Shown here: positions 9,073 through 17,977 of the stretch, piece by piece
Position numbering within the stretch: position 1 is the first letter of the stretch
Layout: the number at the start of each line of letters is the position of its first letter
Origin: Copranaerobaculum intestinale
GTDB taxonomy: Bacteria; Bacillota_I; Bacilli_A; Erysipelotrichales; Erysipelotrichaceae
Reading direction: 5' to 3'
Assembly (NCBI RefSeq): GCF_009831105.1
Contig: NZ_WUUQ01000003.1
Location: 60,001 to 92,000 of the forward strand
Length of the DNA: 32,000 bases
Made by a program: the position numbers and the translations under genes
Notes under the pieces: generated by a model
Database searches by the model: none
Told to the model about the DNA's origin: nothing
The model's input: only the letters and a program-made list of their open reading frames with translations

Positions 9073-9429
9073 TCAATTCATTTCAAATTTCTCGGACAAT
9101 TCTGTTAGCTCTTTCACCGTTTCCTGTGTGTGATGCAACAGGGTGTCGCGCATTTCTGGCGGACAGCTGGAATAAAGCATTTTCATCTGATTGACACCCT
9201 CATCCTCCAGAGAAATATCTGGATTTATAAGCGTATCTAAAGAGATGTGCAGGACCTTTGCCAATGCTCTCAAAATCAAATAGGACGGGTTCATTTTCCC
9301 TTTTTCGATATTGGCAATTTGCTTTACAGAAACATGGCTTAGATCGGAAAGTTCCTGTTGTGTCAGTTCTTTATTCTTTCTGGCTTCCCGCATTTTTTGC
9401 CCTAAAGCAGTTAAATCATCAATCGGCAT
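9073..9429 (-). CDS. XRE-family helix-turn-helix transcriptional regulator
   Basis: HTH_3 signature 'LTQQELSDLSHVSVKQIANIEKGKMNPSYLILRALAKVL'. RBS GAGGTGA is present. Confidence 0.8.
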   Translation of the reverse strand: MPIDDLTALGQKMREARKNKELTQQELSDLSHVSVKQIANIEKGKMNPSYLILRALAKVLHISLDTLINPDISLEDEGVNQMKMLYSSCPPEMRDTLLHHTQETVKELTELSEKFEMN

Positions 9430-9443
9430 AATCGTTCACCTCA

Positions 9444-9472
9444 AATATATTTTATCGTTCCGATTTGCACAA
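9444..9472 (-). promoter_or_regulatory. Candidate promoter of the XRE-family gene
   Basis: On the minus strand: TTGTGC (9467-9472), a 17-nt spacer, then TATATT (9444-9449). Confidence 0.4.
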
Positions 9473-9573
9473 AGGAATAACCTTATTGTGCTTGAGAACA
9501 GGACTGATTATGCTGATTCCTTTTTGATAACATGGTTGCTCCATGATTATGGCGTTTCCGGCTGCTAATTGAA

Positions 9574-15850: not shown

Positions 15851-17594
15851 GTCTATGAAACGGATCATTAAATGGGCGGGGAAATATAAGGGACGCCTCT
15901 ATCTTGGCTCTGTTTTTTCCTTTTTCAGCAGCCTGTCTACGGCGATCCCTACAATGGCTGCCGCTTATGCCCTTGATAAAGCAATCGCAGCTTATTGGGC
16001 AGGCAACACAATAGAATCCTCCCTGATCTGGCAGACGCTTTGGATTATTGTTGGCTCGATTGCGCTTAACTTTCTACTCTCTTATTTGCGGGCGGTGTTG
16101 CAGGAAAGCATTGGTTATGAAGTAGCCGCAGGGCAGCGAATCCATTTAGGCGATGTGCTGAAAAGGGTTCCTCTGGGATATTTTTCTAAAAACAGCGTAG
16201 GCGATATTCTGACAGGTGTTACCACGGAGCTATCCACACTTGAATTGCAGGGAATGAAGATGGTCGACATCATCATCAACGGATATGCAAAGTTTATTGC
16301 AATTCTCCTGTGTTTCCTTTTCCTGAGTCCAGCCGCAGCAGTGATTTCTGTTGTCGGCGTTGCCTTTTCCTCATTGGCCTTACATGGTATCAGCAGGCAT
16401 AGTGAAAAGACCGCTGCTATCACGCACCAGGCCATGGAGGATATGTCTGGCTCTGCGATTGAATATATCCGCGGGCTGTCCATCGTTAAATCGTTCGGAC
16501 AGGAAGGGGCTTCTATCGAAAGTTTCCGCAAGGCAAATACGGATTTGAAAAATATTCATATCAAAGTAGAAAAAGGCTATACGCCATTTAACTGCTTGCA
16601 TCTGTTCTCCTTAAAACTGGCATCTATGGGGATTGTGTTTATCTGTGCATGGCAGACACTTAACGGGCAAATGAGTCTTGCTTATTTCCTGATGTTTGTT
16701 CTGTTTTCTTTCGTAATCTTTGGAAGTGTGGAAAACATTAACGACGCGGCTCATATGCTGGGTCTTATAGATTCCGCTATGAATAAGCTGGAAGCTCTGG
16801 AAAATGCAGAATATATCGACCAAGACGGAAAAGATATTACACCGACCTCGTATGACATTACTTTTCAGGATGTATCCTTTGGTTACGATAAACGGACTGT
16901 ATTGCATGATGTGAATTTCACGATTCCGCAGAATACCACAACAGCGATTGTAGGTCCCTCCGGGAGCGGCAAGTCTACCCTGTGCAGCCTGATTGCACGC
17001 TTTTATGATGTTGACGCCGGAAAAATCACTTTAGGAGAAACAGATATTCGAGAATTTACCTGTGACAGCTTACTAAAAAATATCAGTATGGTGTTCCAGA
17101 ATGTATATCTGTTCCGGGATACAATCCGTAACAATATCAAATTCGGCAGCCCGGACGCTTCGGAGGAACAGATGATTGCCGCTGCAAAAGAAGCGCGCTG
17201 CCATGACTTTATTATGGCCTTGCCAGATGGATATGATACCGTCATTGGGGAGGGCGGTTCTTCTCTTTCCGGCGGTGAAAAGCAGCGGATTTCGATTGCC
17301 AGAGCCATGCTGAAAGATGCGCCGATTGTCATTTTGGACGAGGCCACGGCCAGCATTGACCCAGAGAATGAGCATTTGATTCAAGAGGCTATTTCCGCAC
17401 TGACACATGGTAAAACAATCATAACGATTGCCCATAGACTGGCGACGATTGAAAATGCGGATCAAATTCTTGTCATTGATGGTGGAACCGTCGTGCAGAA
17501 AGGAACCCATAAGGAATTGCTGGCTCAAAGGGGAACCTATCAGGAATTTATTAAGATTCGGGAACAGGCTGAGGGCTGGAGGATTCAACAATAA
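15843..17594 (+). CDS. ABC transporter, fused permease + ATPase, subunit 2 of a heterodimer
   Basis: ATG at 15843 overlaps the previous stop by 8 nt, with AGGAGG upstream. Motifs: 'GPSGSGKST', 'LSGGEKQR', 'IVILDEAT', 'IAHRL'. Both nucleotide-binding sites look canonical. Confidence 0.9.
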   Translation: MFKSMKRIIKWAGKYKGRLYLGSVFSFFSSLSTAIPTMAAAYALDKAIAAYWAGNTIESSLIWQTLWIIVGSIALNFLLSYLRAVLQESIGYEVAAGQRIHLGDVLKRVPLGYFSKNSVGDILTGVTTELSTLELQGMKMVDIIINGYAKFIAILLCFLFLSPAAAVISVVGVAFSSLALHGISRHSEKTAAITHQAMEDMSGSAIEYIRGLSIVKSFGQEGASIESFRKANTDLKNIHIKVEKGYTPFNCLHLFSLKLASMGIVFICAWQTLNGQMSLAYFLMFVLFSFVIFGSVENINDAAHMLGLIDSAMNKLEALENAEYIDQDGKDITPTSYDITFQDVSFGYDKRTVLHDVNFTIPQNTTTAIVGPSGSGKSTLCSLIARFYDVDAGKITLGETDIREFTCDSLLKNISMVFQNVYLFRDTIRNNIKFGSPDASEEQMIAAAKEARCHDFIMALPDGYDTVIGEGGSSLSGGEKQRISIARAMLKDAPIVILDEATASIDPENEHLIQEAISALTHGKTIITIAHRLATIENADQILVIDGGTVVQKGTHKELLAQRGTYQEFIKIREQAEGWRIQQ

Positions 17595-17611
17595 GCATAA
17601 AGGAGGAACTG

Positions 17612-17977
17612 ATGAAGATTCATGCGTCTGGGGAGGATTATCTGGAGGCTATCCTTGTTCTACAAAAGAAAATGGGCATGGTCCGCTCCATTGACCTTGC
17701 CCGGCACATGGGCTTTAGCAAACCGAGTATCAGCCATGCGGTAGGCGTTTTGAAAAATGGAGGTTTTCTGACCGTGGATGATGGGTTCCTTCATCTGACC
17801 GTCATAGGTCGGGAGATTGCCGAGAAAATCTATGAACGCCATTTGTTTTTTATGGAGCAGTTTATCGCTGCTGGCGTCGATCAGGAAACAGCGGAACAAG
17901 ACGCCTGCCGGATTGAACACGCCATCAGTGATACATCTTTCCGAAAGCTGAAGGAGAAAGTACAAGGAACCGATTAG
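17612..17977 (+). CDS. Compact MntR/DtxR-family metal-dependent transcriptional regulator
   Basis: 'GEDYLEAILVL', wHTH 'SIDLARHMGFSKPSISHAVGVLKNGGFL', 'YERHLFFMEQF' and 'CRIEHAIS' align by eye with B. subtilis MntR metal-ligand positions (Asp8, Glu11, His77, Glu102, His103). RBS AAAGGAGG is present. Confidence 0.8.
   Translation: MKIHASGEDYLEAILVLQKKMGMVRSIDLARHMGFSKPSISHAVGVLKNGGFLTVDDGFLHLTVIGREIAEKIYERHLFFMEQFIAAGVDQETAEQDACRIEHAISDTSFRKLKEKVQGTD

Follow-up and report, generated by a model that had tools for sequence, protein, structure and literature searches.

The question raised by this locus is what is transported by the cargo genes of an integrative and conjugative element (ICE) whose host is the human gut bacterium Copranaerobaculum intestinale (Erysipelotrichaceae). 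The DNA studied was a 32,000-nt window (assembly GCF_009831105.1, contig NZ_WUUQ01000003.1, positions 60,001-92,000), to which all coordinates below refer unless a locus label precedes them. An earlier note on this DNA had described a block at 9073-17977 encoding an MptD-like S component, a T component (EcfT) and a fused double ATPase of an energy-coupling factor (ECF) transporter, an AraC-family regulator, two permease-ATPase half-transporters of the ATP-binding cassette type (here ABC1 and ABC2) and a small metal-dependent regulator. All seven genes were found present, intact and co-oriented on the plus strand where it had placed them (Table 1); the start of the block did not stand, since 9073 is the end of a minus-strand Xre gene of the ICE backbone. 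The note's inference that the ICE carries a mobile, self-regulated module for metallophore uptake or piracy was supported, and was sharpened by the operators and by the linkage of relatives to nonribosomal peptide synthetase (NRPS) genes. We consider, with a probability of about 0.75, that the cargo is the uptake and regulation half of a siderophore system of the equibactin/yersiniabactin class (aryl-capped thiazoline NRPS products), packed into an 8.5-kb cassette without biosynthetic genes. Since the cassette makes no siderophore, it would serve to exploit those of its neighbours.

Protein families were judged with Pfam and NCBIfam models at their curated cutoffs, and PHROGs was also used. 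The families proposed for the seven genes (TIGR02185, PF02361, PF00005, PF00664, PF12833, PF01325 and PF02742) were matched as predicted. The S component was assigned to the MptD/Trep_Strep family by TIGR02185 (150.9 bits, cutoff 76.45) and PF09605 (216.9 bits, cutoff 28.7; E 3e-64); no other S-component family in Pfam or NCBIfam matched it, and no vitamin-specific one was among its matches. EcfT had been credited with two ARG coupling motifs; two X-Arg-Gly motifs were indeed found, MRG at residues 164-166 and TRG at residues 202-204, but the canonical Ala is missing from both. The fused EcfA-A' double ATPase (AA) scored 259 bits with the TIGR01166 cbiO model (cutoff 212) and has two sets of Walker A, signature and Walker B motifs. 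The open reading frames (ORFs) for S, T and AA overlap or abut and form one operon (10140-12995), in the layout of a dedicated (group I) ECF transporter.

Relatives were collected by an S-component profile scan of species-representative genomes, which gave 204 relatives, and 80 loci were kept (labelled L0xx). The S-T-AA adjacency was kept in nearly all of the 80 loci with enough sequence. The earlier note had proposed to look for the block on other ICEs; the same gene set was found in most of the 80 related loci, in three gene orders. Since the genes recur together in three orders, their linkage is functional rather than the accident of one element, and the co-occurrence of the cargo genes is far beyond chance. 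Biosynthetic genes lay at most 10 kb away in 8 of the 80 loci; a ninth, L011, starts inside its last biosynthetic gene. In L012 and L013 (Mediterraneibacter glycyrrhizinilyticus), the transport proteins were 84-93% identical in amino acids to those of the window, and biosynthetic genes lie directly before S. These genes encode an NRPS with TubC-dock, condensation/cyclisation (Cy), adenylation (A), peptidyl carrier protein (PCP) and thioesterase (TE) domains in Cy-A-PCP-TE modules, an Irp3-like thiazolinyl imine reductase fused to a methyltransferase, and a saccharopine dehydrogenase. In L011, with transport proteins 84-98% identical, a biosynthetic remnant lies directly before S. The same NRPS linkage, with an aryl-AMP ligase, a type II thioesterase and a PCP-reductase in addition, was found in L043/44, L016/17/19 and L048 (57-65% identity). 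The homology between the window and L013 spans 10031-17587, from the beginning of the S-gene promoter to the end of ABC2. Directly after ABC2, L013 has an IS21-type transposase and IstB (L013:17637-19958), and L011 has an unannotated 391-aa ORF on the minus strand between AraC and ABC1 (L011:4767-5942). Such insertions may help to separate transport from biosynthesis genes.

A further version of the block was found on a Clostridium butyricum megaplasmid and in C. beijerinckii, where genes for a hybrid polyketide synthase-NRPS and a thioesterase are followed by an MptD-type S, T, double ATPase, AraC (minus strand), two ABC genes and a MATE pump. The identity between the window and C. butyricum was 35, 33, 45, 57 and 50% for S, T, AA and the two ABC proteins, respectively. 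The S protein of the C. butyricum block and a Trep_Strep protein of C. beijerinckii share 97% identity, and the C. beijerinckii block matches the Cbei_3098-3093 layout, with AraC in the one-gene gap and a Trep_Strep/MptD protein (ABR35235.1 and relatives) as the first gene. In Streptococcus equi, EqbH, I, J, K and L are homologues of Cbei_3098, 3097, 3096, 3094 and 3093 with 34-54% identity (PMC3672683, Table S2); EqbH is a membrane protein 54% identical to Cbei_3098, EqbI is CbiQ-type, and EqbJ has at least 419 residues (PMC3672683). Because the C. beijerinckii block has this layout and a Trep_Strep/MptD first gene, EqbHIJ can be equated, as judged from gene order and the published identities, with an MptD-type ECF transporter, and it would be a family member with a genetically assigned role. 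Deletion of eqbHIJ from ICESe2 of S. equi abolishes the equibactin-dependent uptake of 55Fe and leads to extracellular accumulation of the active product (Heather et al. 2008, PMC3672683). The substrate of MptD-type transporters had been regarded by the earlier note as unassigned, which does not wholly hold, as the 2008 deletion results tie 55Fe import with equibactin to EqbHIJ (S/T/fused AA). The statement is understandable, since the 2008 paper uses neither the term ECF nor the term MptD (PMC3672683), and in the literature on MptD, Trep_Strep or EqbHIJ after 2008 we found annotation mentions only, none of which links EqbHIJ to MptD or ECF.

The two cargo promoters, upstream of S and upstream of ABC1, were found to have the same design, in which an activator box is followed by a -10 box and a palindrome. 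The 22-bp box common to both, AAATGCC-N-TTTTGGAGA-N-GAAA, occupies the -35 position, and that of the ECF promoter is conserved in L013 and L054. A promoter scan found no consensus -35 hexamer at either promoter, which fits activator dependence, and the AraC protein would be the one to bind the box. The palindrome, GTTAG-N6-CTAAC, starts 7-8 nt after the -10 box at both promoters. Its core is identical to that of the EqbA operator AACTATTATTGTTAGATGTATCTAACAATAATAGTT, which was validated by electrophoretic mobility shift assay; this region is essential for the binding of recombinant EqbA, and the binding is enhanced by Fe2+ and Zn2+ and less by Mn2+ (PMC3672683). When the palindrome was counted with at most one mismatch at 20-100 bp upstream of the S start, it was present in 64 of 78 loci, compared with 0.55 expected by chance from the background rate, and it occurred in 48 distinct versions with invariant arms and a free spacer. 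It also precedes the ABC pair wherever the pair forms a separate operon, and in L001-L013 and L054 the second operator has been kept before ABC1. The claim that the module regulates itself was thereby supported, as two promoters of identical design carry an EqbA-type operator. Moreover, the ABC operon closes with the repressor gene and the ECF operon with the AraC gene, so that one negative and one positive feedback loop would arise.

The operator half-sites match the core of the DtxR/IdeR iron box. About 70 bp upstream of the ABC pair, L064 (Coriobacteriales) has GTTAGGTTAGGCTAAC, which contains the classical DtxR/IdeR iron-box core, and this suggests that the N6-spaced operator and the classical iron box are related. 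Extra copies of GTTAG-N6-CTAAC were seen near other, unannotated genes in L038 (722, 835, 4346, 5973, 14033 and 15020) and in L071 (455, 2006, 4582 and 5459); because of these, the repressor may control a larger local regulon in some genomes. TTTGGAG-N14-TTTGGAG was tried as the activator site and gave no match, the real shared element being the 22-bp box. Riboswitch control of the ECF operon was rejected, as Rfam at gathering thresholds gave no match in the whole window.

The 121-aa regulator had been described as MntR/DtxR-type; its place in the DtxR family was confirmed and its MntR identity was not, and it fits an EqbA-like subclass. In an alignment to Bacillus subtilis MntR, its metal-site positions are D9, E12, H77, C99, E102 and H103, with Cys99 at the position of MntR Glu99, which corresponds to DtxR Cys102 and EqbA Cys104. 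The protein ends at residue 121 without a C-terminal SH3-like domain, as EqbA does. It scored 68.3 bits with the MntR model NF008273 (cutoff 153) and 51.2 bits with NF003025 (cutoff 138), and a bona fide MntR equivalog was rejected because these scores are far below the cutoffs and Cys99 replaces Glu99. The same data bear on the possibility that the ECF transporter takes up free Mn, Co, Ni or Zn in the manner of CbiMNQO/NikMNQO, under an MntR-type manganese repressor. The best NCBIfam names for the regulator are indeed MntR, the T and A components match CbiQ and CbiO models, and for the homologues in C. difficile the published tables give the annotation of a cobalt importer (PMC8144104). However, the S component is neither CbiM nor NikM, no CbiN is present, the MntR scores are far below cutoff, Cys99 is shared with DtxR and EqbA, and the linkage to NRPS siderophore genes is repeated and immediate; we therefore consider free-metal uptake highly improbable. 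As for the AraC protein, its N-terminal part of about 180 aa contains no known domain in Pfam or NCBIfam, and a PDB search matched the DNA-binding half only.

The half-transporters had been predicted at 594 and 584 codons, in agreement with the 593 and 583 aa given by their ATG starts, and both have the canonical motifs ascribed to them (Walker A, LSGGE, Walker B IVILDEA and the AHR H-loop). For comparison with PDB structures, the transmembrane domains (TMDs) were used alone, whole-protein matches being dominated by the ATPase domains. The ABC1 TMD matched IrtA with 59.8, YbtP with 55.6, CydD with 37.5, YbtQ with 36 and drug exporters with at most 25 bits, whereas the ABC2 TMD matched TmrA with 48.6, TM288 with 44.5, MsbA with 35, YbtP with 23.7 and IrtB with about 23 bits. 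An IrtA-type N-terminal siderophore-interaction (FAD) domain was found in neither protein; PF00664 starts from about residue 30 and no extra domain is present. The analogy to YbtPQ/IrtAB drawn by the earlier note therefore held for the ABC1 TMD and not for the ABC2 TMD, which is non-specific, and the homologous S. equi pair is dispensable for import. The pair is not to be filed as a YbtPQ/IrtAB-type importer.

It could then be argued that ABC1/ABC2 has nothing to do with the ECF importer beside it and exports drugs, peptides or bacteriocins. The fused architecture of TMD and nucleotide-binding domain (NBD), the position of the ABC2 TMD nearest to TmrA, TM288 and MsbA, the multidrug-exporter annotation of the C. 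difficile 630 homologues in the published tables (PMC8144104) and the efflux role suggested for EqbKL (PMC3672683) are in line with this explanation. Nevertheless, the pair did not cluster firmly with drug or bacteriocin exporters, and no drug exporter comes near the scores of IrtA and YbtP with the ABC1 TMD. The pair has two canonical nucleotide-binding sites, of which one is degenerate in the typical drug-exporter heterodimers of Firmicutes. Furthermore, the pair has the activator box and the operator in common with the ECF operon, the repressor gene belongs to its operon, and its linkage to the ECF genes is kept through three gene orders, on a Corynebacterium plasmid and in NRPS clusters. 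In-frame fusions to the ECF ATPase also exist. An unrelated exporter is thus very unlikely.

In the three fusions (L018:11306-14578, L041:11306-14650 and L048:11310-14579), the ECF double ATPase is joined to ABC1 in one ORF of 1089-1114 aa with the order NBD-NBD-TMD-NBD (three PF00005 and one PF00664), each in a different genome. The junction in L018 retains an internal ribosome-binding site (RBS) and an ATG, so that separate translation stays possible there. As a Rosetta-stone hint, these fusions may indicate joint action of the ECF transporter and the ABC pair. On the other side, the ECF genes and the regulators occur without the ABC pair in four loci (L038, L040, L046 and L052), which together with the genetics of S. 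equi suggests that the ECF transporter is the importer and the ABC pair an accessory. Candidate roles of the pair are ligand export, ligand recycling or a second import step.

The gene content, the cassette limits, the NRPS linkage of close relatives and the design and conservation of promoters and operators were observed directly; for the siderophore-uptake reading, the import role of the ECF transporter and the metal-dependent binding of repressor to operator are taken from the published experiments on homologues. On this basis the cassette may work as follows. When iron is plentiful, the Fe2+-loaded EqbA-like repressor would bind both GTTAG-N6-CTAAC operators just downstream of the -10 boxes and shut the promoters. 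When iron is scarce, repression would be lifted and AraC would activate both promoters through the 22-bp box; judging from PchR and YbtA, it probably needs the incoming ferri-siderophore as its co-inducer. Import of the ferri-siderophore, presumably a thiazoline one, would fall to the MptD-type ECF transporter (S, T and fused A-A'), and the co-regulated ABC1/ABC2 heterodimer would assist by export or recycling of the metal-free ligand or in a second import step. The siderophores would be those of other members of the community.

Several points weigh against the siderophore-uptake reading. The six-helix fold expected of an S component could not be confirmed. The homology to the Eqb proteins rests on the published identity table, family membership, gene order and the operator, and not on direct alignment. 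The metal selectivity of the repressor cannot be read from its residues because an Asp stands at the DtxR Met10 position, as in MntR. The ABC2 TMD is nearest to generic exporters; YbtPQ-like import by the pair gains no support because deletion of eqbKL did not block import in S. equi, where efflux was the role suggested (PMC3672683), and an exporter has no obvious use in a non-producer. The tblastn search with the biosynthetic proteins, which gave neither an NRPS gene nor a remnant of one, covered the window and not the remainder of the host genome. Finally, equibactin has never been purified or isolated and gave no signal in the chrome azurol S assay, and its authors allow for a low iron affinity (PMC3672683).

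The last point, together with the enhancement of EqbA binding by Zn2+ as well as Fe2+ (PMC3672683), is also what speaks for a different substrate, namely a thiazoline-type NRPS product that is handled for a purpose other than iron: a Zn, Cu or Ni metallophore, or a signal or antibiotic that is taken up or detoxified. The regulator mixes an MntR-like Asp9 with a DtxR-like Cys99, which is consistent with such a product, and yersiniabactin also binds Cu, Zn and Ni. Against it, both the accumulation of 55Fe and the streptonigrin sensitivity of S. equi needed eqbE and eqbHIJ (PMC3672683), the half-sites of the operator match the iron-box core, and L064 has a classical iron box. We regard a non-iron product as unlikely.

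The limits of the cassette were set by blastn. The interval 9665-18130 was 96.6-98.8% identical in nucleotides to L008 (Eubacterium album) and L009 (a Faecalibacterium metagenome-assembled genome) and 80% identical to L054, and the homology ends at both cassette edges. In these loci the cassette adjoins a different relaxase and MobC, which lie on the opposite strand and are 32-38% identical in amino acids to those of the window. At the left edge, 9735 to 9665 on the minus strand encodes MANRKRNIQMNFYVTENKKRLIDE and then diverges to a stop, whereas L008 encodes a full MobC beginning MANRKRNIQIKFYVTEDEKRLIDEKMSQ. This mobC start, intact in L008, marks the left edge and indicates capture of the cassette from an L008-type mobilisable element, or an exchange with one. 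The entire element, from the SNF2 helicase to the integrase, was 95-97% identical by blastn in Agathobaculum butyriciproducens and Enterocloster aldenensis, and its encoded proteins are near-identical also in Yanshouia hominis and an Oscillospiraceae genome. The cassette is found, with 97-99% nucleotide identity, in many gut Bacillota, where its mobile backbones are of at least two unrelated kinds. Identical copies of the S, the AraC and the regulator protein were each found on at least 1000 contigs, and the S protein is 100% identical in about 10 species. A 96-aa ORF at 9787-10077 on the minus strand had no match in Pfam, NCBIfam or PHROGs and was rejected as a gene; it was treated as probably spurious because of this, its odd sequence and its overlap with the promoter.

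Transport-only versions are common and arose repeatedly. When clades were set at 80% identity or more over S+T+AA, linked and orphan loci numbered 2 and 11 in the clade of the window, and 3 and 24 in a second clade; a 20.7-kb MOBF plasmid of Corynebacterium has S-T-AA-ABC-ABC as its only evident cargo. It might be supposed that the cassette has no present function and is merely what decay has left of a biosynthetic cluster after its deletion, as the orphan loci L030 and L028 retain a fragment of the last biosynthetic gene and the window has the truncated mobC scar. However, all seven cargo ORFs are full length relative to the versions linked to biosynthetic clusters, the promoters and operators are intact, conservation is 97-100% across many species, and transport-only loci outnumber linked ones in two independent clades. 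Intact ORFs and occurrence on at least 1000 contigs and at least two backbones are signs of selection, and a functionless leftover is hardly credible.

Since the biosynthesis genes were searched for in the window and found absent, the cargo is not a complete Eqb-type locus. Like the eqb locus (eqbA-N), it is the cargo of a Tn1549/CTn-type ICE, with an SH3-less DtxR-like repressor (EqbA) for a palindrome centred on GTTAG-N6-CTAAC, an S/T/fused-AA importer (EqbHIJ) and a TMD-NBD pair (EqbKL, 28-30% identical to YbtPQ). Unlike that locus, it lacks the NRPS and tailoring genes (eqbB-G, M and N) and has an AraC regulator, which the eqb locus does not; its repressor gene ends the ABC operon, whereas eqbA heads the eqb locus, and its operators follow the -10 box, in contrast to the eqbB palindrome, which occupies positions -73 to -38 counted from the ATG. 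For C. difficile RT023, the published gene table of 023_CTn1 lists a membrane protein, Ecf T, ABC ATPase, AraC, ABC, ABC and sigma-70 on an ICE, in the gene order of the window, but in this element there follow genes for a thiazolinyl imide reductase and a saccharopine dehydrogenase as well as an NRPS cluster that antiSMASH relates to equibactin (PMC6814731), while the window cassette ends at the S-gene promoter. Compared by published tables alone, cd630_04300-04330 on CTn2 of C. difficile 630 is a transport-only set of T, fused NBD/NBD (490 aa) and TMD/NBD proteins of 571 and 582 aa, with no AraC listed between the transporters (type B order) and with annotation as cobalt importer and multidrug exporter (PMC8144104); the CTn2 set has been called "transport genes of unknown function" (PMC3672683).

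The cargo also resembles the yersiniabactin (YbtPQ, the AraC protein YbtA, Fur) and pyochelin (PchR) systems in that a metal-dependent repressor and an AraC activator stand over the transport of a thiazoline NRPS siderophore, and the ABC1 TMD is nearest to YbtP and IrtA among solved structures. In contrast to yersiniabactin, the ECF transporter, instead of the exporter-fold pair, is assigned the import, a DtxR-type repressor takes the place of Fur, and there is no outer-membrane receptor; in contrast to YbtQ/IrtB, the ABC2 TMD shows no specific similarity, and no IrtA-type siderophore-interaction domain is present. The mpt cluster of Mycobacterium avium subsp. paratuberculosis (mptABC plus mptDEF), the namesake of the MptD family, places exporter-fold ABC genes and an MptD-type ECF set near iron-uptake genes. 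By this description it has the same combination of ABC and ECF genes, and the Corynebacterium plasmid carries the five-gene set in Actinomycetota.

That related ICEs carry the gene set is already known, and there are studies of homologues. Four points appear not to have been stated before: the recognition of the orphan cassette, the limits and multi-backbone spread of this cassette, its conserved dual-promoter design with an EqbA operator, and the explicit equation of MptD-type ECF transport with siderophore import. Thousands of genes annotated as "MptD family putative ECF transporter S component", "cobalt transporter" or "multidrug ABC transporter" thereby gain a testable function, the ECF substrate range would grow from vitamins, Co/Ni and heme to siderophores, and the conserved operator and activator box offer a handle for regulon prediction. 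The spread of the cassette indicates that siderophore exploitation by non-producers is common and horizontally mobile among strictly anaerobic gut commensals, which bears on iron competition in the gut, including that with yersiniabactin-producing Enterobacteriaceae. A wider generalisation is possible but doubtful: MptD-type ECF transporters could be general siderophore importers of Gram-positive bacteria, the first ECF class for metallophores, with an ABC heterodimer that recycles the ligand, and the biosynthesis-free ICE cassette a widespread "cheater" device for thiazoline siderophores, possibly including the yersiniabactin of Enterobacteriaceae. If so, gut commensals of many families could pirate thiazoline siderophores.

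Table 1. Features of the cargo cassette and of the surrounding ICE in the window (HTH, helix-turn-helix).
Feature	Position	Strand	Remarks
ICE backbone, left part	32..9429		SNF2 helicase, DUF3848/3849, MobC/NikA, DUF5699, Schlafen-like gene (-), relaxase, Xre HTH
MobA/VirD2 relaxase	7417..8850	+	left backbone; cargo lies between relaxase and sigma-70/integrase block
Xre-type HTH	9073..9429	-	ICE backbone, not cargo
Cargo cassette	9665..18130	+	8.47 kb; blastn to L008, L009, L054
mobC 5' remnant	9665..9735	-	about 24 codons, L008-type; recombination scar at left cassette edge
Putative AraC activator box, ECF promoter	10045..10066	+	AAATGCCTTTTTGGAGAAGAAA; ends 17 nt before -10
-10 box, ECF promoter	10084..10089	+	TATACT; conserved in window/L013 alignment
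Operator, EqbA-type	10098..10113	+	GTTAGttcgtgCTAAC
ECF S component, MptD/Trep_Strep	10140..10718	+	192 aa; PF09605, TIGR02185
EcfT	10718..11455	+	245 aa; PF02361 at 66 bits
Fused EcfA-A' double ATPase	11460..12995	+	511 aa; two PF00005
AraC-family regulator	13090..13947	+	285 aa; PF12833 at 71.5 bits, C-terminal double HTH
Putative activator box, ABC promoter	13957..13978	+	AAATGCCGTTTTGGAGAGGAAA; ends 17 nt before -10
-10 box, ABC promoter	13996..14001	+	TACAAT; spacing identical to ECF promoter
Second operator	14009..14024	+	GTTAGcaaagaCTACC
ABC1, TMD-NBD half-transporter	14069..15850	+	593 aa; ATG 14069 after good RBS; ORF opens at GTG 14060
ABC2, TMD-NBD half-transporter	15843..17594	+	583 aa; ATG 15843 after good RBS; ORF opens at GTG 15819
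EqbA-like DtxR-family repressor	17612..17977	+	121 aa; PF01325 33.6 bits, PF02742 43.5 bits, both above cutoff
Intrinsic terminator	18089..18121	+	14-bp stem; closes cassette; homology ends at 18130
ICE backbone, right part	18311..22306	+	sigma-70 region-4 protein, HTH_17 (Xis-like), two tyrosine integrases
Int1, tyrosine integrase	19720..20946	+	exact sequence on 2 contigs
Int2, tyrosine integrase	21095..22306	+	exact sequence on at least 1000 contigs

The cargo slot is flanked by the relaxase, MobC, the Xis-like HTH protein and the tyrosine integrase in the layout of a Tn1549/CTn2-type ICE, and the gene order matches that described for ICESe2, CTn2/5 and Tn1549 (PMC3672683). Genes for type IV secretion and the coupling protein would be expected before the first position of the window. 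The proteins of the left backbone were 90-100% identical in amino acids in L001-L003, except for a small ORF at 8816-9133 in L002 (86%), and the DUF3848/3849 protein was only 64-65% identical in L006 and L007. The GC content drops from about 46% to about 30% at 22.3 kb, from which we infer that the right end of the ICE lies near this point; no tRNA gene was found in the window. Int1 and Int2 stand in tandem, are 55-58% identical to each other and both belong to large 90%-identity clusters. The idea that Int2 is foreign to the element was rejected, as the sequences of the related loci simply end before it, and in Hungatella effluvii the same cargo regulator lies five accession numbers from an identical Int2.

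Between mobC and the relaxase, a protein with Schlafen/AlbA_2, HATPase_c_4 and Fic-like_C domains is encoded at 5899-7311 on the minus strand, in a local GC dip of 43%; the gene is kept in the near-identical ICEs, and a role in regulation or defence is possible. The 105-aa ORF at 8816-9133 (plus strand), whose start overlaps the relaxase gene at its end, belongs to no Pfam or PHROGs family and is conserved at 86-95% in related ICEs. In the host DNA, a 621-aa protein encoded at 28566-30431 joins Vut_1 (a YhhQ-type queuosine-precursor transporter) to a tRNA-guanine transglycosylase, and by its domains it would be a transporter-enzyme fusion for queuosine salvage.

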